From the NCBI GenBank assembly GCA_025829515.1, contig GCA_025829515.1_4865.1: a stretch of DNA of 64,000 nt. One strand, given 5' to 3'. The notes below the pieces were generated by a model that was given only the letters and a program-made list of their open reading frames with translations, searched no databases and had not been told where the DNA came from. The number at the start of each line of letters is the position of its first letter. Within the stretch, counting starts at the first letter, position 1. Both the position numbers and the translations under genes were made by a program. Positions 5,512 to 35,849 of this stretch are shown piece by piece. This DNA is from a phage.

Positions 5512-5913
5512 ATGACTATCAAGAAGTTCTTACAAACAGTAGTAGTTCTGGCCGCATGTGGTATCGCAGCAACTTATGCTTTCGATAAGCCAGACGTGAC
5601 TGAATACACATCAGCTGATTCGGATTATGGCATTGCGCCGAATGAAAAACCGGAACTGATGCGTGAGGTCGAACAGTTACAAATCTACAGACTGACGGAC
5701 GGTAAGAACTGCACAGGGCTGGTTATCGCTGATAAGAAATTGAAAATGTATCAGCGGTTAATCGACATATCGTGCAATCAACCAAAAGTCACCTCGGTCA
5801 GTGTATCGCCACTGGAATTACCGAATTTGGTTGCTGTGAGCTTTTATCACAACGATGTGCTCGTCGGTCGCATCACCCTCAATCGTGGAGATATCAAAAA
5901 TGAAATGCAATAA
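5512..5913 (+). CDS. putative lipoprotein (133 aa)
   Basis: N-terminal signal peptide with lipobox-like LAAC; first of four consecutive signal-peptide ORFs. Confidence 0.5.
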   Translation: MTIKKFLQTVVVLAACGIAATYAFDKPDVTEYTSADSDYGIAPNEKPELMREVEQLQIYRLTDGKNCTGLVIADKKLKMYQRLIDISCNQPKVTSVSVSPLELPNLVAVSFYHNDVLVGRITLNRGDIKNEMQ

Positions 5914-6391
5914 CGTTAATCGCCACTTGGCCAAAGTGGTGCTTTTTACTGTGCTGTTGATGGCAGTTGTTGTTGGGCTACGGATTTCTAAGGCGCACGC
6001 TGACGAATTCAGCGGGTTCCAGGGCAGTATTAACGGCAGCATTCCAGCATATACCCGCACCATCAATCTTAATGATAAGCCGTTCTGGTGCAATGCGCGT
6101 AAGCTGCTTAAGAAACAGTGTCGTGTAGTTGACATATCCTTCAACGGACGTGTCGCTATCGTACACCGTCCGGGCGATAAAGATTGCCCAGGTGGTTGGT
6201 GGGGTGCAGTCGACCGTCACAACGGTGACGCGTTATGGCTTATCCCTAATCGTGATGAACTATCAGTGGAGAAAATTTGCAGCAAAGATTTCAGGGCCGG
6301 TTTTGTACAGCGACCGGATACCAAAACTCTGGCATCCATCGCTATGTACTACGGTATGGAAACCATCAAAACAATCGACTATTCAGAATAA
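5900..6391 (+). CDS. putative secreted protein (163 aa)
   Basis: Start placed at ATG 5900 (GGAG RBS); predicted signal peptide ending AHA; several Cys. Confidence 0.5.
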   Translation: MKCNNVNRHLAKVVLFTVLLMAVVVGLRISKAHADEFSGFQGSINGSIPAYTRTINLNDKPFWCNARKLLKKQCRVVDISFNGRVAIVHRPGDKDCPGGWWGAVDRHNGDALWLIPNRDELSVEKICSKDFRAGFVQRPDTKTLASIAMYYGMETIKTIDYSE

Positions 6392-6413
6392 CTCAAAAAA
6401 TTGAGGTACTATT

Positions 6414-6824
6414 ATGAAACATTTTTTATTACCAGTTTTACTTGCTACTCTGGCCATTAGCTTCTTCGCTCGCGCTGGAAGTATCGAGTTACCAAAAGTT
6501 GTTAACGATCACGAATACGGCGGGCCGTTCTGGTGCCAGAACTCTGACGTACAAGGCGGTAGCTGTCAGATCGTTGCGATGTCCGATAACAACCGTTACC
6601 TGTTAGTGAAAACGATGGGCGGTGTCGCATGTGGCGACCCTGAATACGGGGTTATTAACATGGCAACAGGTCAGGCCGAATCCATGAACTACAATGATAA
6701 CCAAGCCTGTAGCGGTGAAGCCGTTGCTGAGTTTACTCGCGACCCAGGTGATAATGCCCTGACGGTTATCATGTACGACCCTACGATTAAGAAAAACGTA
6801 GGCATCAATAAACTCGACTTTTAA
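6414..6824 (+). CDS. putative secreted Cys-containing protein (136 aa)
   Basis: Signal peptide MKHFLLPVLLATLAISFFARA; GAGG RBS. Confidence 0.5.
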   Translation: MKHFLLPVLLATLAISFFARAGSIELPKVVNDHEYGGPFWCQNSDVQGGSCQIVAMSDNNRYLLVKTMGGVACGDPEYGVINMATGQAESMNYNDNQACSGEAVAEFTRDPGDNALTVIMYDPTIKKNVGINKLDF

Positions 6825-8628: not shown

Positions 8629-11139
8629 ATGCTCAAGGTCGAACGTATCATTTTGAAAGGATTTACCGGCATGGGGTTACATGAAATCGAAACGTTTGAT
8701 TTCACCCTTAAGTCAACCGTTACCATCATCCTCGGTGGCAACGGCTGCGGTAAAACAAGCCTCCTATCTGTTTTTCTCCCCTTAGCTCCAGCAAAATCTG
8801 AATTCCGTGAAGGTGGTTCTTACACTAACTACGCGTTAGTCGGGGACGACCGTCTTAAGTTTGAAGTCCTGCGACGTGGGTCTTCTTTGTCTTGTAGTAT
8901 TTTCAATATCACTAAAGGTGTCTCCATCGTAGACTCGGTAAACGCCAAAGTTTACAACTCCATGGTGGAGCAATTAACCGGAATCACCAAAGAAATCAAA
9001 GAGTTAATTAATGGTGAGACCTTATTAACTGACGCCACTACCGAAGTTCGTCGTAAATGGTTTACGTTAATGTCAGAATCTGATCTGACGTACGTTGTTG
9101 GTTGCTATCGACGTTTGCGTAAACTCGCTTCCAGTTTAAGTGGGGCCATTGAGCACACCGGCCGTAAAATCGGTGAGGCAAAAATGCGCGTGGTGGACGA
9201 TGAAGAAGATCGTGCACGTTTGGAAGTTCGTTTGAAAGAACTCGATGCTGAGCTTCAGGAATTAAACCGCACAATTGAAGCGAGACCCGGTTTAGATAAT
9301 GCCGTTTCGGTTGATAGTATCCGGAAACGCATTGCTTCGTTGCAACCGGCTGTAAAACTCATTATGGAACGTTATGGCGTTCTGCCTTCTGACGAACTGA
9401 TTAACGAGTTTCAAAGTCGTGTGGTTGCCTGGCGTGAGCAAGCTGCCTCTGCTGAAACTGAATGCAACATGTACAATAAAGAGTTGTCACAGCTACTGGA
9501 TGAGGAGTCGCGTCAAGCGTATCTGATGCGCAACCATACCGGTCTAAAACAAACAATCGACAGCTTAAAACAGGAACTGGCAACGTTCCAACAGAACTGG
9601 ATGTTCCCGGCTCTGTTTGAAGGTACCCGCATTGATGTGGATAGCATTCAGAACGCGTTAAACGATGCCTGTAACTGGAATTTACCGTTGTCCATGCATC
9701 TGGACCAGTTAAAGACAACAGATCGCCTGGGAGCGTTAGAGAAGCGTTTACAGGGTATGGATTTAACCTCTGCGGGTCTATCTGAAAAGCTGCAACGTTG
9801 TGAGAATGTGCTACACGGTTTATACCACGACCGTCAACACTTCTTAGAAACTGCAGAAGTTGATTGTCCACAGTGTAACCACCGTTTCCGTCCTGGGATT
9901 CGTAAGTCGTTACCTGAAATTGAAAAGGCCATCAACGATAATGAAGGTTGGAAGAAGCAGCTGAAAGACGAAATGGATAGTCTTTTGCGTGACCGCAAAG
10001 AGATTGAAGAGGACGTCCGTAGCTTACGTACGATTCGCGAAATCGTCATGTCGTATTCCAACCATCCTGTTGTCGGTTTGTTTTTCCGTAAACTGCAGGA
10101 GCTGGATATCTTCACCACGGCGCGGGATCGTTATGGTGCCATTGCACGTGCCTTTACCGAAGAGTTAGATTCGGCCATGATGTATCTGCGTCAATCAGCG
10201 AAGCTTGCAACAGCGGAACGGGAATGGCAAGAGGCTGTTGCCGCAGTAGGTAATGTTGATGGTGCGCTGAGCCAGAAAATTGAACATATCCGTTCACAAC
10301 TGGACGGGGCTAACCGTCGACTGATAGAATACCGCAGACAAGCCAATGAGCTGGAACGCGAAACCACCCAACTGCAACAAACCAAAGAAGCAATCGAACG
10401 TTTCCAAAAAGGCTACGAACATCTGGTATCGGAAATGAACATCTCCGTTAACAACGTCGTGGTTCGCGAGTTGTTAAACCGACGCGAAGCGAAGCTCGAT
10501 GCGTACACTTCCGCTCGTGAACGGTTTCGTCAAATGGAAGGGGCTATTGCACGTTTAGCGGAATTGGAAAAAGAGCAAGCTGAGTTGCTCAAAGAACACC
10601 ATCATGCCAGATTGATTATCAATGCCGTCTCACCCGAAAAAGGATTATTGCGTCGTTACTTTTATGCTGCGATTACCCGCATCATGGATTTAATGAATCG
10701 GTATATCGAAATGGTGTGGGCATATCCGATGCAGGTTATTCCATGCGATCTAACCGACGGGGATTTGGATTATACTTTCCCGGTGCGATTAAAAGACCAT
10801 GAAGAACTGGTGCCGGATGTGAAGAAAGGTTCAAAAGCACAGCGTATCATTTTCAACATGATGTTTCGTTTAACGGCGTATAAAGCACTTGGTTTACAAA
10901 ATTATCCTTTGTTATTGGATGAACCATCTGAAGGCATGGATGAAGAACACAAAAACCGATTAGTTAACTTCATTAAATCGTTGGCGTTGTCGGGAGAGTT
11001 TTCTCAATTGCTGGTCGTTTCGCATGAAGCGGAAGTTCATTCTAAACTTAACGAAGCCACCTACTGTGTCGTAGAACCAGAAGGTGTAACGCTTCCACCG
11101 GTGTATAACGAAGGGGTAATAATCAAATATGCATCATAA
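8629..11139 (+). CDS. Rad50/SbcC-like SMC-family ATPase (836 aa)
   Basis: N-terminal Walker A ILGGNGCGKTSLL, long central coiled-coil-like region with CPQC zinc-hook-like motif, C-terminal Walker B LLLDEPSEGMDE. Confidence 0.75.
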   Translation: MLKVERIILKGFTGMGLHEIETFDFTLKSTVTIILGGNGCGKTSLLSVFLPLAPAKSEFREGGSYTNYALVGDDRLKFEVLRRGSSLSCSIFNITKGVSIVDSVNAKVYNSMVEQLTGITKEIKELINGETLLTDATTEVRRKWFTLMSESDLTYVVGCYRRLRKLASSLSGAIEHTGRKIGEAKMRVVDDEEDRARLEVRLKELDAELQELNRTIEARPGLDNAVSVDSIRKRIASLQPAVKLIMERYGVLPSDELINEFQSRVVAWREQAASAETECNMYNKELSQLLDEESRQAYLMRNHTGLKQTIDSLKQELATFQQNWMFPALFEGTRIDVDSIQNALNDACNWNLPLSMHLDQLKTTDRLGALEKRLQGMDLTSAGLSEKLQRCENVLHGLYHDRQHFLETAEVDCPQCNHRFRPGIRKSLPEIEKAINDNEGWKKQLKDEMDSLLRDRKEIEEDVRSLRTIREIVMSYSNHPVVGLFFRKLQELDIFTTARDRYGAIARAFTEELDSAMMYLRQSAKLATAEREWQEAVAAVGNVDGALSQKIEHIRSQLDGANRRLIEYRRQANELERETTQLQQTKEAIERFQKGYEHLVSEMNISVNNVVVRELLNRREAKLDAYTSARERFRQMEGAIARLAELEKEQAELLKEHHHARLIINAVSPEKGLLRRYFYAAITRIMDLMNRYIEMVWAYPMQVIPCDLTDGDLDYTFPVRLKDHEELVPDVKKGSKAQRIIFNMMFRLTAYKALGLQNYPLLLDEPSEGMDEEHKNRLVNFIKSLALSGEFSQLLVVSHEAEVHSKLNEATYCVVEPEGVTLPPVYNEGVIIKYAS

Positions 11140-11320
11140 AGGTTGGCGCTTATGGGCTTGGTGGGGTTTTCAGTTCCTTCAGTTTGTTGTGATGGTACTG
11201 TACCTCTCCTTTTGTGCAACCGTAGTGGTTATCGCTGCGGTCGTTTATTTAGCTGCTGCTCTTAAAGAACGTCTGTTCGACACGCGTTGTGAGTGGCGAG
11301 ATATAGGGGAACGGACATGA
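11129..11320 (+). CDS. small hydrophobic/membrane protein (63 aa)
   Basis: Trp-rich hydrophobic ORF; first of five overlapping small membrane-type ORFs. Confidence 0.35.
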   Translation: MHHKGWRLWAWWGFQFLQFVVMVLYLSFCATVVVIAAVVYLAAALKERLFDTRCEWRDIGERT

Positions 11321-11421
11321 TTGAAGGTATCGTATTAACCGGTATTGCACTGTGGTTGATTCGTGGTGCCTGGGGTTGGATTATCCGCACGAAAGGATGG
11401 GCGTTCCATGGCAACACGTAA
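11317..11421 (+). CDS. small membrane peptide (34 aa)
   Basis: ATGA overlap with preceding ORF; hydrophobic MIEGIVLTGIALWLIRGAWGW. Confidence 0.35.
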   Translation: MIEGIVLTGIALWLIRGAWGWIIRTKGWAFHGNT

Positions 11422-11611
11422 ACCACGTCGCTTAAAATCTTGGGCGGTTGTGATAATGCACACTGTAGTGTTGCTGGGTATTTTCTTGTCTCGTGCCACG
11501 CCTGCCTTTTGGGGCTTAGTTGTTTTGGTGTTCTTAGAAGGGGTTTACTTCGGTAATCTGTGGAGCAAGCCCCCGCGTTTAAGGGACCCGGCTTATGACA
11601 GTCGTGAATAG
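11408..11611 (+). CDS. small membrane protein (67 aa)
   Basis: AAGGA RBS; N-terminal basic stretch then TM segment. Confidence 0.4.
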   Translation: MATRKPRRLKSWAVVIMHTVVLLGIFLSRATPAFWGLVVLVFLEGVYFGNLWSKPPRLRDPAYDSRE

Positions 11612-11726
11612 TGTCAACGCGGCGATGATTGCAACGGGTGCGTATGACGGTGCCACATGGACAGATGTTGGTATCACGCTTATCATTTGCGCAATCGGAG
11701 CGTTTGTAGCAACATGGTTATTTTAG
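11595..11726 (+). CDS. small membrane peptide (43 aa)
   Basis: Overlapping start; hydrophobic ...GITLIICAIGAFVATWLF. Confidence 0.35.
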   Translation: MTVVNSVNAAMIATGAYDGATWTDVGITLIICAIGAFVATWLF

Positions 11727-11821
11727 TGAAATGGGTTGGGTGTATCGTCTGTAGCCTGATACTAGGAGCGGGCGCATACGCCCTAGGCGCAATCCTTGCA
11801 TTGACGCAAGGTTGGTTTTAA
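11726..11821 (+). CDS. small membrane peptide (31 aa, GTG start)
   Basis: GTG overlapping previous stop by 1 nt; hydrophobic CIVCSLILGAGAYALGAILAL. Confidence 0.3.
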   Translation: MKWVGCIVCSLILGAGAYALGAILALTQGWF

Positions 11822-11839
11822 CAGGAGGGTAATTACGAA

Positions 11840-12118
11840 GTGGGAGAAACGTCATGTAACAGTGAAACAGTCTCTGATCCCGTGGTCGTGGGTTCAGGGG
11901 CGGCCGAGCCAACCCGGCGTATCGTTCTTTCGGGCGTGGGGATGGCTATAGGGTCTTCAAAGAACCTTCTAGCAGACATCGCGGAAGTCTGCGGGCCGGA
12001 TGATTTTGCAGTTTCACGTACAGTCGGGGAAGACTGGCGTGGTAATCAGAAGCGCCATGAGCGAATGTGGCGACGGAAGGTTACCTCAGCATCGCAGCGT
12101 TTTCAACGACGTTGTTGA
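11840..12118 (+). CDS. hypothetical protein (92 aa, GTG start)
   Basis: Strong AGGAGGG RBS before GTG; coding status uncertain. Confidence 0.3.
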   Translation: MGETSCNSETVSDPVVVGSGAAEPTRRIVLSGVGMAIGSSKNLLADIAEVCGPDDFAVSRTVGEDWRGNQKRHERMWRRKVTSASQRFQRRC

Positions 12119-12237
12119 TCAAAGACACGGTTCCGATAGAGAACTGGTCTTTACCTGCAGCGGTATACACCGCTAAGCTTTACCGGTAAACTTAAGAAAA
12201 CACAAACGCAATTCTTCGTTACTCGCTTTCATCGCAG

Positions 12238-12753
12238 GTGAAAGCTCACTTAGGAATTCAGCTCATGGCCGAAATTGTCATTCTTTCCTCATCCTCAGAT
12301 TTAACGGAAGCACAAAATAAACAGCTGTTGGGGCTGCATTATAAATTTCTGAACCACCAACGTACCATACTCCATATCGAAAAAGGTGAGATTCCGAACC
12401 TCACTCTGGAGAAACTGTTGGCGGGGAACCGTGCCTGCGTTGCTCTGGAAGGGGGCACCCCTGTTGGTTACTGTTTGTATCGCGTAATCGCTGGGGTTCT
12501 GAAGATTCGTACGATGTTCGTGTCCGAAATGGCACGCCGTCGCAAAACGATGACGCAGATTTTTGATGCGCTTGATGTGAATGAGCAGTTCACCAGTGCG
12601 CATGGGGGAATATACGCTTGCCAGGAAGCTGGTATTGCGTTCTTTACCGCTCGCGGTTTTGACAAGACCGTCTCTACAGACGGACAATGGCTTGAATTTA
12701 AGAAGCAGGTTCCTGCGGAAGCAGATGAACCTTTAAGGACTGCGGTAGCATAG
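12238..12753 (+). CDS. putative GNAT-family acetyltransferase-like protein
   Basis: Weak resemblance to GNAT acetyl-CoA binding region; start uncertain (GTG 12238 or ATG 12265). Confidence 0.35.
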   Translation: MKAHLGIQLMAEIVILSSSSDLTEAQNKQLLGLHYKFLNHQRTILHIEKGEIPNLTLEKLLAGNRACVALEGGTPVGYCLYRVIAGVLKIRTMFVSEMARRRKTMTQIFDALDVNEQFTSAHGGIYACQEAGIAFFTARGFDKTVSTDGQWLEFKKQVPAEADEPLRTAVA

Positions 12754-12823
12754 TCCTGTTTTAGCACTCCTTACGATTATGCCTCACTATGAGTGGGGTA
12801 TTTTTACGCGAGGAGTGCTATTT

Positions 12824-13042
12824 ATGTTTCACCGTCCTGGGTTTTCAGCTTTAAACACCGATGTCTGTTGGGCTGAGTACGAGCGGGTGAAGGAGTTCTT
12901 ACCCGTAAATCCTAAACACATCAACGTGGGTACTATCGGGCGTGTTGCGTTCGATGATACTCCGCTGAGTACGTGTATTAAAGCAGCGCTTGGTACGCTG
13001 CCTGAGCCTCACCACCACGACTGGGAGGCAACTTTACCCTAA
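12824..13042 (+). CDS. hypothetical protein (72 aa)
   Basis: GAGGAG RBS upstream of ATG 12824. Confidence 0.35.
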   Translation: MFHRPGFSALNTDVCWAEYERVKEFLPVNPKHINVGTIGRVAFDDTPLSTCIKAALGTLPEPHHHDWEATLP

Positions 13043-13053
13043 GGAGCATTAAA

Positions 13054-13476
13054 ATGGTTACCGCTATTCGCGAAACAAAATCACTATACGATCATTTATC
13101 AGAAGAAGAAACAGCCTTATTCTACGACCTGTTACCTGAAACCAAAGCAAACGTTCAGTGGTGGTTACGTTTAGCGCTACGTGATAAAGTTGGGGAAACG
13201 CCGGTTAGTATTCTCGCGCACACGTTGGACATGACGCCCATGATTGAAATCGCGATTACCCGCCCTAAATTCTGGCGGCCTGGTATGGTGCGTGAGGCGT
13301 ATCTACTCCAACGCTTAGGTGTTGACCCGGAGAAGTGTTGGCGTAAGATGGACGACCATCGCTACCGTGAAGAAATTACGAATAGCCTCAACACTATGTT
13401 GGCAATGAAACGGCTCGGTATCGAACACGAAGGTTTCGAGTCAGCGGTAAAAGCCTGGGTGAAAAGGAATAGCTAA
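13054..13476 (+). CDS. hypothetical protein (140 aa)
   Basis: AAGGAG RBS; ORF. Confidence 0.55.
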   Translation: MVTAIRETKSLYDHLSEEETALFYDLLPETKANVQWWLRLALRDKVGETPVSILAHTLDMTPMIEIAITRPKFWRPGMVREAYLLQRLGVDPEKCWRKMDDHRYREEITNSLNTMLAMKRLGIEHEGFESAVKAWVKRNS

Positions 13477-13725
13477 ATGCAAAAAACAATCATCGGAATA
13501 ACGGTTGGTTCTTTCTGTGGCTTCCCTACCCCACAAACAGAACCCCAATATTTGGGCGCAGGCAAACCTGACCCGGAAGTCCGTAAGTTGCGCGAAGAAG
13601 CAAAAGCCAGAGTTCTTACTGAGCTGGAATCGTTGCTTCAGTCTCCGGTTATTTCACAATGGGGTATGGCAATAGATGTCACTCGAACTGATCGACGAGG
13701 CCGTTATCTCCCACGACTTGTTTAA
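13477..13725 (+). CDS. hypothetical protein (82 aa)
   Basis: AAGGA RBS; abuts previous stop. Confidence 0.45.
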   Translation: MQKTIIGITVGSFCGFPTPQTEPQYLGAGKPDPEVRKLREEAKARVLTELESLLQSPVISQWGMAIDVTRTDRRGRYLPRLV

Positions 13726-14176
13726 CGCGCCTGAGCGCTTCAAGGTCGTTACAGTTAACTGCGTTGGTGCAATGGGAAGGGGCATTGCCTTGGCGTGCCG
13801 AGAACGCTTCCCATCGCTTTATAATGACTATCGCCAGAAATGCCGTAAAGAGCAAATCGTTATCGGTGAGGTCTATTGTTATCCTGAGGAAGGGGTAATA
13901 CTCCTTCCTACTAAAACCCATTTTCGCTATAAATCGCAGATTTACTATGTCACGTCCGGCATTGATGCGCTGGCGCGACTAGGGGAAGACTTAGAAGGAG
14001 GGATTGCGATACCACCCCTAGGGATGGCTAACGGTTGGTTACGTTACCATGAGCGATTGGAAATCTTTATACACTTACAGAAACGACTACAGCACACGGA
14101 GCAGACTTATCGATTCTATTTACCGGACACCTTGCTGAGGGAAGCAGAGAAAATCATCCCAAATAGTTTCAAATAG
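13676..14176 (+). CDS. macro-domain (ADP-ribose binding/processing) protein (166 aa)
   Basis: VVTVNCVGAMGRGIALAC and GIAIPPLGMANGW resemble macro-domain Gly-rich loop and second conserved loop. Confidence 0.55.
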   Translation: MSLELIDEAVISHDLFNAPERFKVVTVNCVGAMGRGIALACRERFPSLYNDYRQKCRKEQIVIGEVYCYPEEGVILLPTKTHFRYKSQIYYVTSGIDALARLGEDLEGGIAIPPLGMANGWLRYHERLEIFIHLQKRLQHTEQTYRFYLPDTLLREAEKIIPNSFK

Positions 14177-14191
14177 ATATTATCATCAGGG
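14171..14191 (+). promoter_or_regulatory. putative phage promoter motif copy (aaatagatattatcatcaggg)
   Basis: Conserved motif copy upstream of gene 14276. Confidence 0.45.
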
Positions 14192-14275
14192 CACATTACA
14201 AAGGAGCACAATGCCGTCCGCGCCGTCTTCCCGGATTGGGAACGGAAAAGTATAAATCCGTTTGGAGATACATCC

Positions 14276-14998
14276 ATGTTTCGCACCATTTTATTTCTTC
14301 TGGTAGCAATGACTACGTTCAACAGCAACGCTTCTTACCAGACCACCAGTAACAAACACCAAAAAGAATTCGTCCTTATCCAGGACCAGTTCAATGAGAT
14401 TAAACCTCTCATCGTCACCGCATCTCGAAAACAAGGCGTACATGCCGGGATGCTCGCGACCACCATTTATCGTGAATCCCGTTTTAATAAAAACGTGGGT
14501 AAGAATAAATCGAGCAGTGCTAGTAGTGTTGTCCAAATGACGACAGGCACTAAACGCTCCATGATACGTCTGTATGGGAAACAACTTAACATCCCAAAGA
14601 ATGCGGACCTTAATAAACCGAAGTATGCTGTACAGCTTGCTGCCGTTTACATGAAACACATCGAGGATCATCTGACAAAACAACTCAAACGCAAGCCGAG
14701 CACAGCCGAAATCGCTTTAGGCTACCGCTTCGGTGAGGGTGCTGCTGTTGCGATGATTAAAAAGAAATCACCGGTCGGGAAACGCTGGATGGCCAGCTAC
14801 CGAAAAGACGCAGCATTCTACGGTGCGAAAATGACACCACCGAAAGCTGAAACACGTCAGCTTGCTTTTGCGAAGGAAGACCGCGACCAACGCGTCGCTG
14901 AGCTTCAGAAAATCTGGGATACGCTGTACACCAAAATATCACCTGCGGCCGGTACATTACTGGCAAATAACACTATCATGAAAGGAGCATTGCTTTGA
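14276..14998 (+). CDS. secreted lytic transglycosylase-like protein (240 aa)
   Basis: N-terminal signal peptide; TIYRESRFN...SSVVQMTTGT resembles SLT catalytic E-S and GLMQ motifs. Confidence 0.55.
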   Translation: MFRTILFLLVAMTTFNSNASYQTTSNKHQKEFVLIQDQFNEIKPLIVTASRKQGVHAGMLATTIYRESRFNKNVGKNKSSSASSVVQMTTGTKRSMIRLYGKQLNIPKNADLNKPKYAVQLAAVYMKHIEDHLTKQLKRKPSTAEIALGYRFGEGAAVAMIKKKSPVGKRWMASYRKDAAFYGAKMTPPKAETRQLAFAKEDRDQRVAELQKIWDTLYTKISPAAGTLLANNTIMKGALL

Positions 14999-15588
14999 CA
15001 CTCGTAACACGCCCCTGGTATCCAGGTCTTAAAACAGCCGCACAAATCACCGCCAAAGACGTTTACGAACTGATTCGCGCGGGTGCGGAACACGTTCAAA
15101 CCAATCCGAACTACGTTGAGCGTCCTATCGGTGAAGTCGATGGGGAAGCTGTCGAAGCACCTGTCTACGTTGAGTACGGCGAATGGTTCGCAGAGAACCA
15201 CGGTTTCTACGACGCGTTAAACGCGGCGTTTGGTGATGACGAAGACGAAGGTATCGAATTCGACTGGAACGTTAATCTGGCGCTGATGTGGATTTGTGGT
15301 TTACGTCCAGCAATTAACGAAACCGAAGCAGGCTTCGTGCTGACGTGGCGACAGTCGGCGGGTTACGATAAAGAACTCGACTTCAAACAGGCGTATATGG
15401 ATGTGTCGATTGCACTGCAGAAACTGTTCTTCGGCGATCGTGCTTTCTGCCAGCTCAGCTGGTTGACCATCCTGGAAAAACTGGCAACGTGCCACAAACT
15501 GTGGCGAGCAGAAGATGCCCCAGAACATCTTTTCGTGCTCGAATATGCAGTGGTACCGAACCAGCCGTTCTTTGAGGCCGAAGCGTAA
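14995..15588 (+). CDS. hypothetical acidic protein (197 aa, TTG start)
   Basis: AAAGGAG RBS 6 nt upstream of TTG; followed by terminator. Confidence 0.5.
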   Translation: MTLVTRPWYPGLKTAAQITAKDVYELIRAGAEHVQTNPNYVERPIGEVDGEAVEAPVYVEYGEWFAENHGFYDALNAAFGDDEDEGIEFDWNVNLALMWICGLRPAINETEAGFVLTWRQSAGYDKELDFKQAYMDVSIALQKLFFGDRAFCQLSWLTILEKLATCHKLWRAEDAPEHLFVLEYAVVPNQPFFEAEA

Positions 15589-15593
15589 TTAAC

Positions 15594-15626
15594 GGTCAGA
15601 CCTTCGGGTCTGACCACCTTTTATTT
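15594..15626 (+). terminator. rho-independent terminator
   Basis: ggtcagaccttcgggtctgacc hairpin + T-run. Confidence 0.6.
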
Positions 15627-15639
15627 AATTCTTGGGTGT

Positions 15640-15906
15640 GTGTTCGTGAAACGTTTAATAAATTTTCTCTACTGGATGGAGAAACGCTATAGCCACAACA
15701 TTCCGATGATGTATAGTTTGTTATTCTCCACGGTAATGTTGGTAATCGGTGCGATCGTCGCACATCTGATGGAACTCACGTCCCCATGGGCGCAACTCTT
15801 TCTTACCATCTGGATGTTGTTCTCAGGCTACCACATACGTGGTTTCATAACCCGATTCTTTCGCTGGCGGAGTACCTGGCACGTCTTTAATTCCGACCGT
15901 AACTAG
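15640..15906 (+). CDS. small membrane protein, holin-like (88 aa)
   Basis: Two predicted TM segments, basic C-terminus; weak RBS, GTG start. Confidence 0.35.
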   Translation: MFVKRLINFLYWMEKRYSHNIPMMYSLLFSTVMLVIGAIVAHLMELTSPWAQLFLTIWMLFSGYHIRGFITRFFRWRSTWHVFNSDRN

Positions 15907-15966
15907 TTTTTTACAGCAGTAACTAATCATCTGAAAATACCATTGACTTTTATAAGGACTATTAAC

Positions 15967-17100
15967 ATGCAATTTCCAATTTCCGTAATCGAAGATATGG
16001 CTCGTGTAGTACGTGACCGTGCGTATGTGCTTAGCTACGAAGGTATTCGTGCATATTCAGAAGCTCTGATTGCACAACACGTCACTGGCACCGGTGTTAT
16101 CAACCCGGATCTTTACAATGCGCTGGTCGATAACAATGTGGAGGCTTATCTGCCGCTGCCGCACCTGCGTAATAAGTTGTGCCTTTCTTCTCAAACTCTT
16201 CAGTTTGATAACCTGCCGCCACTGAAATATTCGCCAGATGACCGTTGGGGAAGTATGCTGGGCGTAGCTTTCCAAAATTGCCACGCGCCTTATAACTGGT
16301 CTATTCTCGTTGAAGGTGTTGATGGCGTCTGGTATGCCATTGCACATTCTGACGGATTCTTCTTCGAACCAGGTGAGTTGATTAAACCAGTAAGTGCCCC
16401 ACAAGGCCGTGCTAAGGTTGGGCATTGTTACATTGAATTGACTCATGTCCAGTGGACTATCGAAGACTGGCGTGCTGCCTCCGTTATCTTCGGTGACGGT
16501 AAACCACACTCAGTTACTTTCGAGCGTTGTGAAGCAGAGCATGTTGAAGAGACTGACAATGACGAAGTGGGAGATCGTTACGCGCCGCTGGAAGAGTGCC
16601 GTAACATCGCGAACATCGACTGGGTGAAAGTCTTTACGGCCAACCCCGGTTTCCGTGGCCAGACTATCAACCCCGGCGAAGTAACCTGGGAAGGTTTCGT
16701 ACAACTCGCAGATAAACTCGGTTATGACGTGTGGGATTACACCTACAAACGTCCATACCCGAATGCGTCGGAAGATGAAGACCACGATGAAATCATTCTG
16801 GAAAACCTGGCTGATATCGAAAACGTGTTCATCGATGATGAAATCTTCATCACCCTCGGCATTGAGCGTCCGAAATCAACCGCATATCCGGTATCGGTTG
16901 CCAACGTTATTCAGGAACTGGGCAAGATGCAGGAGCAGACCGTCGAAGTGAAAATCGACGAAGAGCAAATGCATATCGCTGCACAGGTACAGAAAACTCT
17001 GAACCTGGATAAGCTGTACGCGGAAATCCGCAAGCAGCCGAAAAAGAAACGTACTGCTGCCACAATCAAAGCAATGATGCGTGAAATTATCGGCAAGTAA
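15967..17100 (+). CDS. hypothetical protein (377 aa)
   Basis: ATG 15967 with AAGGA RBS; followed by bidirectional terminator. Confidence 0.6.
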   Translation: MQFPISVIEDMARVVRDRAYVLSYEGIRAYSEALIAQHVTGTGVINPDLYNALVDNNVEAYLPLPHLRNKLCLSSQTLQFDNLPPLKYSPDDRWGSMLGVAFQNCHAPYNWSILVEGVDGVWYAIAHSDGFFFEPGELIKPVSAPQGRAKVGHCYIELTHVQWTIEDWRAASVIFGDGKPHSVTFERCEAEHVEETDNDEVGDRYAPLEECRNIANIDWVKVFTANPGFRGQTINPGEVTWEGFVQLADKLGYDVWDYTYKRPYPNASEDEDHDEIILENLADIENVFIDDEIFITLGIERPKSTAYPVSVANVIQELGKMQEQTVEVKIDEEQMHIAAQVQKTLNLDKLYAEIRKQPKKKRTAATIKAMMREIIGK

Positions 17101-35502: not shown

Positions 35503-35552
35503 TTTACGGCCGCGGCTGTACGTATGTGAATCACCCACAAGGAGTATATATC

Positions 35553-35849
35553 ATGCAGACCAACGATCCCGTTAACGATTACATCGACCAATGCATCGAT
35601 GCTGCAATCGTTTTAAAGAAACATTTTCCTGAGCAGAAAGAGCGTAATTTCTGGATGCCGTTTAAAACGCTGTACCCGAAACGTCAGCGTATCACCGAAA
35701 AGATGTGCAACGACATCATCTCTGTTCTATCGGCCCGAAAAATCGATTACAAAAGACCTGAAATTGCCGATGGTTTTATTATTACCATAAACCTAGTAAA
35801 AAACGCGTTAACCGTAAAACAGGCAACTAGTGCGCTGAAAGAGGATTAA
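35553..35849 (+). CDS. hypothetical protein (98 aa)
   Basis: ATG 35553 with AAGGAG RBS. Confidence 0.5.
   Translation: MQTNDPVNDYIDQCIDAAIVLKKHFPEQKERNFWMPFKTLYPKRQRITEKMCNDIISVLSARKIDYKRPEIADGFIITINLVKNALTVKQATSALKED

Follow-up and report, generated by a model that had tools for sequence, protein, structure and literature searches.

A stand-alone DarG2-type macrodomain of a Seoulvirus jumbo phage as a probable orthologue of the anti-DarT factor AdfM

The DarG antitoxins of DarTG2 systems are known from T. aquaticus and M. tuberculosis (structures 5M31, 5M3E and 5M3I; Jankevicius et al. 2016, PMC5179494). The DarG macrodomain is by itself enough for the antitoxin role, and in the T. aquaticus (Taq) protein the K80A mutation inactivates the enzyme, followed by N22A as the next most damaging mutation (PMC5179494). 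Stand-alone DarG2-like macrodomains of ~160 aa have been described from chimalliviruses under the name AdfM (anti-DarT factor macro), comprising PhiKZ gp104, PhiPA3 gp108, Goslar gp83 and Asesino gp217, with both PhiKZ gp104 and Asesino gp217 named by Morgan et al., Cell Rep 2026 (PMC13309987). PhiKZ AdfM strips the ADP-ribose added by DarT2 from ssDNA, rescues DarT2 toxicity and is required against DarTG2, an N23A mutation reduces its activity, and AdfM of Asesino, PhiKZ and PhiPA3 localises to the phage nucleus (PMC13309987). In an independent report, Tk.4 of T4, also named AdfM, was required specifically against DarTG2; this phage macrodomain is structurally like M. tuberculosis DarG and has the same predicted mechanism, but it comes from a T-even phage that forms no nucleus (HIDEN-SEQ preprint, bioRxiv 10.1101/2025.11.20.689424). 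The same strategy is described (PMC11825919, PMC11481870) for the orphan antitoxins that T4-like and ICP1 phages use against DarTG1, where a phage copy of the antitoxin's enzymatic domain reverses DNA ADP-ribosylation. These proteins have the unrelated NADAR fold, and their substrate is the guanosine-linked ADP-ribose that DarT1 adds, in contrast to the thymidine-linked ADP-ribose from DarT2.

The window analysed here, a stretch of 64,000 nucleotides, belongs to a Seoulvirus, i.e. an SPN3US-like Salmonella jumbo phage, with 99.1% DNA identity to the SPFM-series phages and 96.9% to SPN3US. Seoulvirus is a member of the family Chimalliviridae, the nucleus-forming jumbo phages. Five ORFs that a sequence-only reading had placed in one part of the window were all recovered at their positions on the + strand: 12238-12753 (171 aa), 12779-13042 (87 aa), 13054-13476 (140 aa), 13477-13725 (82 aa) and 13676-14176 (166 aa). 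For the first two, ATG 12265 and ATG 12824 (giving 72 aa in the second case) are the most likely starts, because of their ribosome-binding sites and the starts of orthologues. The features of the locus are as follows.

12265..12753, + strand: divergent GNAT-superfamily protein, 162 aa (start of the listed ORF: GTG 12238)
12824..13042, + strand: conserved 72-aa protein, phrog_28329 (start of the listed ORF: 12779)
13054..13476, + strand: conserved 140-aa protein, phrog_11720, 50% identical to Asesino gp214
13477..13725, + strand: 82-aa ORF, overlapping the start of adfM by 50 nt
13676..14176, + strand: AdfM orthologue, stand-alone DarG2-type macrodomain (166 aa), catalysis predicted for N28 and K80, loops for ADP-ribose in residues 26-38 and 113-120
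14276..14998, + strand: SLT-type lytic transglycosylase, conserved in four lineages as the gene downstream of adfM (context)

The 166-aa protein had been proposed to be a macro-domain protein on the strength of two loop motifs, KVVTVNCVGAMGRGIALACRE and GGIAIPPLGMANGWLRY. Both are found in its translation, and the assignment is borne out far beyond chance by matches to phrog_335 (1.3e-29), PDB chains, NCBIfam and PADLOC, with the Pfam Macro model giving a borderline score (21.7 bits against a cut-off of 22, i.e. 0.3 bits under the gathering score). The best PDB sequence matches in phmmer are the DarG macrodomains of M. tuberculosis and T. aquaticus (5M3I at 1.9e-20, 5M31 and 5M3E at 8.7e-19). 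NCBIfam and PADLOC returned DarG models exclusively, namely antitoxin_DarG at 1e-30 over profile positions 7-150 of 338 and the PADLOC DarG model at 4.3e-32 over positions 7-147 of 329, in both cases the macrodomain part only. By phmmer, NCBIfam/PADLOC and Foldseek alike, the bacterial DarG2 group is nearer to the protein than any other macrodomain subfamily.

Three other identities were considered and rejected. A Poa1p/MacroD-type ADP-ribose-1''-phosphate phosphatase as closest relative does not agree with the Poa1p chains, which reached E = 0.05-0.13 over just 39 residues in the PDB search and rank 31 in Foldseek. A full-length DarG antitoxin (NCBIfam equivalog NF048014) was dismissed at 107.2 bits against a cut-off of 250, with the C-terminal DarT-binding region unmatched. 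A DarG antitoxin beside darT (DUF4433) was discarded as well, the neighbours of the gene being the GNAT, the small ORFs and the SLT gene.

Profile search and structure prediction, the route suggested by the sequence-only reading for checking the macro fold and catalytic residues, both came out in its favour. The AlphaFold2 (AF2) model (pLDDT 93.8, pTM 0.90) predicts a macrodomain fold with an ADP-ribose-binding cleft, and its top Foldseek match in the PDB is 5M3E, the DarG macrodomain with ADP-ribose (TM 0.76/0.83, rmsd 2.2 A). Ranks 1-4 are all DarG (5M3E, 5M31, 5M3I, 7OMU), followed by human TARG1 (C6orf130; 4J5Q, 4J5S; TM about 0.68-0.78), which has the catalytic lysine position in common, yet is just 16% identical. 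N28 and K80 are kept and invariant among 52 homologues; they align with N22 and K80 of Taq DarG, and N28 with N23 of PhiKZ AdfM. Among solved structures, DarG thus matches best in both sequence and structure, with shared macrodomain subfamily, fold and catalytic residues, whereas the phage protein differs from it in having neither the C-terminal DarT-binding half nor an adjacent or genomic darT. Relative to Taq DarG, four ADP-ribose-contacting positions are altered (Q34 to A40, W83 to F83, G119 to A118 and G122 to W121). The position of G119 is Ala in PhiKZ AdfM as well, and with F83 the side chain is still aromatic.

The window protein is 70% identical to Asesino gp217 (YP_009290835.1) over its full length and in a syntenic position, with the gene order SMC...GNAT...macro-SLT common to both phages. 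Against PhiKZ gp104 the identity is 35% (3e-25), with a reciprocal single match in SPN3US. We regard family identity, the predicted fold, conservation of the catalytic Asn and Lys known from chimallivirus AdfM, and orthology and synteny with a named AdfM as established for this protein. There are also differences: the genus here is Seoulvirus, with Salmonella, E. coli and Proteus as hosts, and the function is predicted from sequence and model; the loop GMANGW, specific to the clade, replaces GCANGG, residue 83 is Phe in place of Trp, and the insertion of ~14 residues before the second glycine loop of PhiKZ gp104 is absent. The identity of just 35% to the biochemically tested PhiKZ enzyme counts against the AdfM assignment. 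A literature search combining SPN3US with macro-domain terms found nothing specific.

A phage-encoded toxin-antitoxin pair of DarT and macrodomain was rejected, since tblastn found no DarT2 homologue in chimallivirus records, Seoulvirus included. DarT2 homologues are present on plasmids of Escherichia, Citrobacter and Klebsiella. Being phage-encoded, the protein would be an antitoxin mimic and not a member of such a pair. Targets of DarT2 are plentiful in the phage DNA, and the window showed no depletion of the TNTC motif (2225 sites versus 2130 +/- 40 expected).

We therefore consider it likely that the gene at 13676-14176 is the adfM of Seoulvirus and that its product, orthologous to the named AdfM proteins, is a DarG2-type DNA ADP-ribosyl glycohydrolase acting against DarT2-modified thymidine in phage ssDNA. 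On infection of a host with DarTG2, DarT2 uses NAD+ to ADP-ribosylate the thymidine of TNTC motifs where the phage DNA is single-stranded, and replication and packaging are blocked. The ADP-ribose would be bound in the macrodomain cleft made by two glycine-rich loops (residues 31-36 and 116-120), where N28 would position the substrate and K80, the TARG1/DarG-type catalytic lysine, would cut the ribose-thymine bond and restore unmodified DNA. As the phage is a chimallivirus, AdfM probably acts within the phage nucleus after selective import. Enzymatic activity, protective role and nuclear localisation of the Seoulvirus protein would follow by analogy from its published homologues, and as a DarG2-like macrodomain without the C-terminal, DarT-binding half of DarG it can be viewed as an ‘orphan antitoxin’. 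The sequence-only reading had suggested a reversal of host ADP-ribosylation used in anti-phage defence, and in view of the DarG2-type matches and the AdfM orthology this is most likely the job of the macrodomain. The idea is correct but already known, and nothing here is conceptually new because mechanism and family were published in 2025-2026.

What is gained is a specific function for a gene with inconsistent labels in public records of the SPN3US group, where it appears as ‘hypothetical protein’, ‘phosphatase’, ‘putative Appr-1-p processing protein’, ‘protein-ADP-ribosylation protein’ or ‘macro domain-containing protein’. The assignment also extends AdfM to jumbo phages of Salmonella, E. 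coli and Proteus that are under consideration for biocontrol and therapy, and it predicts resistance of these phages to hosts carrying DarTG2.

Some of these labels bear on the choice of substrate. It seems quite improbable that the main substrate is another ADP-ribosyl conjugate, with uracil-ADP-ribosylated RNA, Glu/Asp-linked protein ADP-ribose as for TARG1, and small molecules, e.g. O-acetyl-ADP-ribose or ADP-ribose-1''-phosphate, as candidates. Such a role would agree with the label ‘phosphatase’ of phrog_335 and the annotation of many relatives as ‘Appr-1-p processing’, labels that go back to such small-molecule substrates, with TARG1 being the structural neighbour next after DarG, and with certain cleft residues that are unlike those of DarG. 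However, DarG macrodomains lie far above the Poa1p type in both sequence (1.9e-20 versus 0.05-0.13) and Foldseek rank (1-4 versus 31). TARG1 also removes Glu-linked ADP-ribose from proteins via its second catalytic residue D125, of which the window protein has no acidic equivalent; at this position we presume the Asn of the GMANGWL loop, from a hand alignment with the TARG1 sequence. Taq DarG and TARG1 cleave U-ADPr on RNA in vitro, although Taq DarG does so less efficiently than T-ADPr (PMC13036486), and the homologous proteins of PhiKZ and T4 have a demonstrated DarTG2 phenotype (PMC13309987; bioRxiv 10.1101/2025.11.20.689424). DNA thymidine may still not be the sole substrate of the AdfM orthologue, because macrodomains of the DarG/TARG1 type hydrolyse uracil-linked ADP-ribose on RNA in vitro (PMC13036486).

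The sequence-only reading had offered, as a second option, the degradation of ADP-ribose-derived signals, and this found no support, given that the catalytic residues and nearest relatives belong to the DNA-deribosylating DarG/TARG1 branch. A role of the macrodomain in breaking down or sequestering NAD-derived immune signals, e.g. of the gcADPR type of Thoeris, rather than in removing a covalent modification, is barely credible to us. Phages countering NAD- and ADPr-based signalling provide a general precedent, and a comparative-genomics survey proposed variant cADPr signals as possible targets of some viral macro domains (PMC9503650). Against this, no known signal sponge or hydrolase came up as similar in profile searches with Pfam, PHROG, NCBIfam and PADLOC, and the invariant TARG1/DarG lysine together with DarG-specific best matches favours cleavage of a glycosidic bond on a macromolecule.

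Upstream of adfM, the ORF described earlier as a weak GNAT-like acetyltransferase proved to be a genuine but divergent member of the superfamily, with a marginal match to Pfam Acetyltransf_1 (21.1 bits against a cut-off of 20.7; 37.6 bits for the Asesino orthologue) and a match to phrog_3810 ‘acetyltransferase’ at 4e-42. Distant family members found by profile search only (P0091-P0096) all have PF00583 and PF13508. A phmmer search of the protein against the PDB gave no match, a profile of its orthologues found weak matches to GNATs only, NCBIfam and PADLOC gave no match, and the AF2 model from a 7-sequence alignment reached a pLDDT of 44.9. The pyrophosphate of acetyl-CoA is bound in GNATs by motif A, R/Q-x-x-G-x-G/A. 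In the window GNAT this motif reads RRRKTM, which departs from the consensus and has lost the conserved glycine. Its relatives in the Salmonella branch read RRRK[T/A/V]M, and most other members retain the first glycine (RRRGFM, RR[N/D]GLM); the last position is Met in all family members.

The sequence-only reading had joined the GNAT, the three small ORFs and the macrodomain into a module centred on ADP-ribosylation, which found no support in view of the clade-limited GNAT and the variable intervening genes. One counter-defence unit of this kind, e.g. with acetylation coupled to ADP-ribose processing, would fit five tightly packed genes on one strand (intergenic gaps of 70, 11, 0 and -50 nt) with no strong + strand terminator between 11811 and 15594. 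It would also fit the order of GNAT, 140-aa gene and macro gene, which Asesino keeps, as does a metagenomic relative with a macrodomain of just 54% identity, and the unrelated Moabite-like phages, in which a different GNAT abuts and overlaps the macro gene. We nevertheless judge such a unit very improbable. The GNAT family (18 protein clusters) is limited to one clade of jumbo phages, with 64 phage records versus 274 for the macrodomain, and no Pfam GNAT adjoins the AdfM homologue in seven other lineages, PhiKZ included (PhiKZ-like fnug, Goslar, 201phi2-1, Eowyn, Vibrio pVp-JHP1101, Deimos-Minion and EarlPhillipIV). PhiKZ AdfM rescues DarT2 toxicity alone (PMC13309987), and Derbicusvirus retains the macro and SLT genes next to unrelated upstream genes. 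Genes are gained and lost between GNAT and macro even among close relatives, as seen in an extra 172-aa gene in SPN3US and the extra gp215 and gp216 in Asesino. The Moabite GNAT has no detectable similarity to that of the window (E = 4.1), which in turn is without the conserved glycine of the acetyl-CoA motif. Rfam yielded no match in 10500-16500, and a sigma-70 promoter scan performed no better than on shuffled sequence.

Alongside the likely AdfM orthologue, we regard the GNAT and the three small upstream genes as separate accessory genes to which no function is assigned. A broader interpretation, which we hold to be rather unlikely, is that the stretch from an SMC-like gene to adfM (about 11.1-13.7 kb) forms a hypervariable counter-defence islet anchored on adfM, with the GNAT and the 72-, 140- and 82-aa proteins as further anti-defence factors. 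AcrVA5 inactivates Cas12a by acylation, and one possibility within such an islet is that the GNAT might inactivate a host immune protein by acylation. The independent GNAT-macro pair of Moabite-like phages would in that case be a hint of recurrent functional pairing.

The three small ORFs are conserved at the protein level in Asesino and are therefore probably genes. The 72-aa version of the first is 52% identical there, the 82-aa ORF has an unannotated 99-aa counterpart with 43% identity, and the C-terminal part of the 140-aa protein is additionally 38% identical to a gene in the metagenomic locus L013. NCBIfam and PADLOC gave no match for the 140-aa and 82-aa ORFs, a profile of the 140-aa protein found none in the PDB, and the 72-aa ORF had negligible sub-threshold EF-Tu matches only in NCBIfam. 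In SPN3US, the 172-aa gene is inserted right after the ‘GTLP’ residues of the 72-aa protein.

The ORF at 13676-14176 encodes a DarG-type macrodomain and is an orthologue of AdfM, a counter-defence factor already characterised by experiment. The ORF positions in the sequence-only reading were all exact, and both peptides it quoted are found in the 166-aa product. The genes concerned, with their downstream neighbour, are:

12238-12753 (+), GNAT-like acetyltransferase
12824-13042 (+), small ORF of 72 aa
13054-13476 (+), small ORF of 140 aa
13477-13725 (+), small ORF of 82 aa
13676-14176 (+), macrodomain gene adfM, 166 aa
14276-14998 (+), lytic transglycosylase (SLT)

Absence of a macro-domain profile hit had been named as grounds for rejecting the claim, and on Pfam Macro alone the outcome was ambiguous, with 21.7 bits falling slightly below the cut-off of 22 bits. 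The protein also matched phrog_335 (1.3e-29), NCBIfam antitoxin_DarG (1e-30), PADLOC DarG (4.3e-32) and PDB sequences (1.9e-20, 8.7e-19 and 2e-10). An AlphaFold2 model built from 52 homologues was confident (pLDDT 93.8, pTM 0.90), and the top PDB entries in Foldseek were DarG macrodomains from M. tuberculosis (5M3I) and T. aquaticus (5M31, 5M3E), with Thermosipho DarTG (7OMU) also among the best. The closest was 5M3E with bound ADP-ribose (TM 0.76/0.83, rmsd 2.2 Å); below DarG, human TARG1 ranked next, followed by viral, MacroD and Poa1p-type macrodomains. The macro-domain claim thus passed the fold check by structure prediction, and the subfamily can be named.

AdfM ('anti-DarT factor macro'), a macrodomain resembling that of DarG2, occurs in about half of chimalliviruses (Morgan et al., Cell Reports 2026, PMC13309987). 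PhiKZ gp104 strips DarT2-installed ADP-ribose off a TNTC ssDNA substrate, fully rescues DarT2 toxicity, is required for PhiKZ growth on DarTG2-carrying P. aeruginosa and concentrates in the phage nucleus, where GFP-tagged Asesino and PhiPA3 homologues also localise (PMC13309987). T4 Tk.4, a DarG-like macrodomain also called AdfM, is the only T4 gene needed against DarTG2 (independent preprint, bioRxiv 10.1101/2025.11.20.689424). The window protein is 35% identical to gp104 as printed in Morgan et al. (E = 3e-25), and gp104 as query against SPN3US gives a single match site, within the macro gene. Asesino gp217 (YP_009290835.1), listed as an AdfM by Morgan et al. (PMC13309987), shares 70% identity with it along the full 166 residues (3e-90), and both phages share the gene order SMC-like, small ORFs, acetyltransferase, small ORFs, macro, transglycosylase. 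Identity and synteny with gp217, together with the match to gp104, therefore make the window gene an AdfM orthologue. The earlier core idea of a macrodomain undoing a host ADP-ribosylation defence was right, and the predicted role can be narrowed to that of an AdfM countering DarTG2 on thymidine-ADP-ribose in ssDNA. The additional suggestion that ADP-ribose-derived signals are degraded is unsupported. The family's mechanism is already known (published 2025-2026), and the window gene is an added orthologue. Public labels are inconsistent ('hypothetical protein', 'phosphatase', 'putative Appr-1-p processing protein', 'protein-ADP-ribosylation protein', 'macro domain-containing protein'), and the practical gain lies in correcting the annotation and in a host-range prediction that can be tested.

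The DarG macrodomain on its own suffices as antitoxin, and in T. aquaticus DarG activity is abolished by K80A, with N22A second most damaging (PMC5179494). Their counterparts in the window protein, K80 and N28, are invariant in 52 homologues, as are the ADP-ribose loop residues T26, G31, M33, G34, G36, T79, G116 and G120. N28 aligns with N23 of gp104, and mutating that residue (N23A) lowers gp104 activity (PMC13309987). Differences from T. aquaticus DarG comprise Q34 to A40, W83 to F83, G119 to A118 and G122 to W121; the active gp104 likewise has Ala at the G119 position. In Vibrio phage pVp-JHP1101 (PQ451753.1), the annotated macro CDS (2579-2926, 115 aa) begins at an internal Met, leaving out the N-terminal portion where the catalytic Asn loop lies. 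Similarity by tblastn sets in ~78 nt upstream, at position 2501 of the locus, and the start is probably mis-annotated.

The NCBIfam and PADLOC DarG profiles are matched over the macrodomain part only (positions 7-150 of about 330), with an NCBIfam score of 107 bits against a 250-bit cut-off for full DarG, and the window macrodomain is an orphan antitoxin, not a toxin-antitoxin pair. A tblastn search of 50,697 phage records with the DarT2 of P. aeruginosa given by Morgan et al. found no homologue in chimalliviruses and one in a single record, Thermus phage phiMa (MH673674.1, 26364-26957; 39.7% identity, 1e-33), which itself bears this putative toxin gene. The same query matched 80 plasmids, including ones from Escherichia, Citrobacter and Klebsiella, so that the toxin is available to bacteria within these phages' host range. 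Across the whole 64-kb window, the DarT2 target TNTC is slightly over-represented and not avoided (2225 sites, where shuffled sequence gives an expectation of 2130 +/- 40); the genome is thus rich in targets, and undoing the modification enzymatically makes sense as a defence.

The phages that match the window have 240-kb jumbo genomes and belong to the genus Seoulvirus, within the nucleus-forming Chimalliviridae in NCBI taxonomy. Over a 3.5-kb stretch around the macro gene, identity is 99.1% to SPFM-series Salmonella phages and 96.9-98.7% to SPLA1a, SPN3US, SEGD1 and relatives infecting Salmonella, E. coli and Proteus. SPLA1a is collinear across the ~49.6 kb compared except for one ~300 bp indel: it lacks window 35551-35848, nearly all of a 107-aa ORF (35526-35849, +) between two conserved genes, a further small accessory-gene polymorphism. 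In the assemblies of SPFM1, 5-10, 12, 14, 15 and 20 (LR535901, LR535903-LR535908, LR535911-LR535913, LR535917), the cluster region is matched only in many short pieces (up to at least 40) and the GNAT and macro products predicted from them are cut short (e.g. P0037, P0038, P0042, P0086-P0090), which looks like indel-rich assemblies and not biology.

The weak GNAT-like call upstream also proved real. The window protein, likely starting at ATG 12265 (162 aa), is marginal in Pfam (21.1 bits against a cut-off of 20.7) and clear in PHROGs (4e-42), while its Asesino orthologue (37.6 bits) and more distant members are clear in Pfam too; the family profile matches only GNATs in the PDB, all weakly. 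This tiny family (64 phage records, 18 protein clusters) is confined to the present clade of Salmonella and Erwinia jumbo phages and metagenomic relatives. The acetyl-CoA-binding motif reads RRRK[T/A/V]M in the window's branch, where its conserved glycine is replaced, and RRRGFM or RR[N/D]GLM in most other members. The protein is thus a real, if divergent, GNAT with putative acetyl-CoA binding.

The 72-, 140- and 82-aa genes are preceded by Shine-Dalgarno-like sequences and have Asesino counterparts at 52%, 50% and 43% identity, respectively; library and PDB searches returned no function for their products. The 82-aa counterpart in Asesino (NC_031107.2, 5457-5756) is an unannotated 99-aa ORF that shares 50 nt with the start of adfM, as in the window, and is probably a gene missed in the RefSeq record. 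SPN3US, SEGD1, EC001 and relatives carry an extra 172-aa gene (YP_009153487; NC_027402.1, 7531-8049; weak, sub-threshold Pfam DUF5694 match only), absent from the window, SPFM and SPLA phages. It is inserted directly behind 'GTLP' in the 72-aa ORF (window junction ~13002-13042), altering the C-terminus of that ORF, and constitutes a 512-bp presence/absence polymorphism within the cluster.

That GNAT, small ORFs and macrodomain form one functional module, as previously proposed, is unsupported. All five genes share one orientation and lie close together (gaps of 70, 11, 0 and -50 nt). No convincing terminator separates them, with terminator-like hairpins at 11794-11811 and 15594-15615, and the order GNAT, 140-aa gene, macro, SLT is kept in Asesino and in a metagenomic relative (macro 54% identical, GNAT duplicated). 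However, AdfM homologues lack a flanking GNAT in seven other lineages (PhiKZ-like fnug, Goslar, 201phi2-1, Eowyn, pVp-JHP1101, Deimos-Minion and EarlPhillipIV), and EarlPhillipIV retains macro, SLT and the downstream gene while everything upstream is unrelated. Even among close relatives the interval is plastic, with the 172-aa gene added in SPN3US and gp215 and gp216 in Asesino, and PhiKZ AdfM is active alone in vitro and in E. coli (PMC13309987). In the distant phages Moabite and Kodama, a Pfam-supported GNAT immediately adjoins the macro gene, but the Moabite GNAT has no detectable similarity to that of the window, so this adjacency would be either independent or extremely diverged. The five-gene cluster is most simply read as synteny inherited within a variable accessory region and not as a functional unit. 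The partner of adfM conserved across genera is the downstream transglycosylase, and this pairing, too, is most likely synteny. The sole route to something new here is the variable upstream gene set, odd GNAT included; that it holds uncharacterised anti-defence genes is possible but improbable.

In Serratia phage Moabite (MK994515.1, 2532-3023 and 2986-3441), the GNAT, which has a canonical RGMGIG motif, overlaps the AdfM-like macro start by 38 nt, an arrangement also seen in Kodama. A divergent relative, JGI metagenome contig Ga0397061_00008, carries two tandem GNAT genes (5614-5988 and 6001-6483; 124 and 160 aa) within the same SMC-to-macro interval where the window has one, and the arrangement recurs in a second compared locus, L014. 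Between the hairpin at 11794-11811 and the GNAT start, window 11822-12264 (~440 nt) holds weak ORFs only, one of 40 aa being annotated there in SPN3US, and has no Rfam match; this stretch may be a promoter or regulatory region of the gene string from GNAT to o197.
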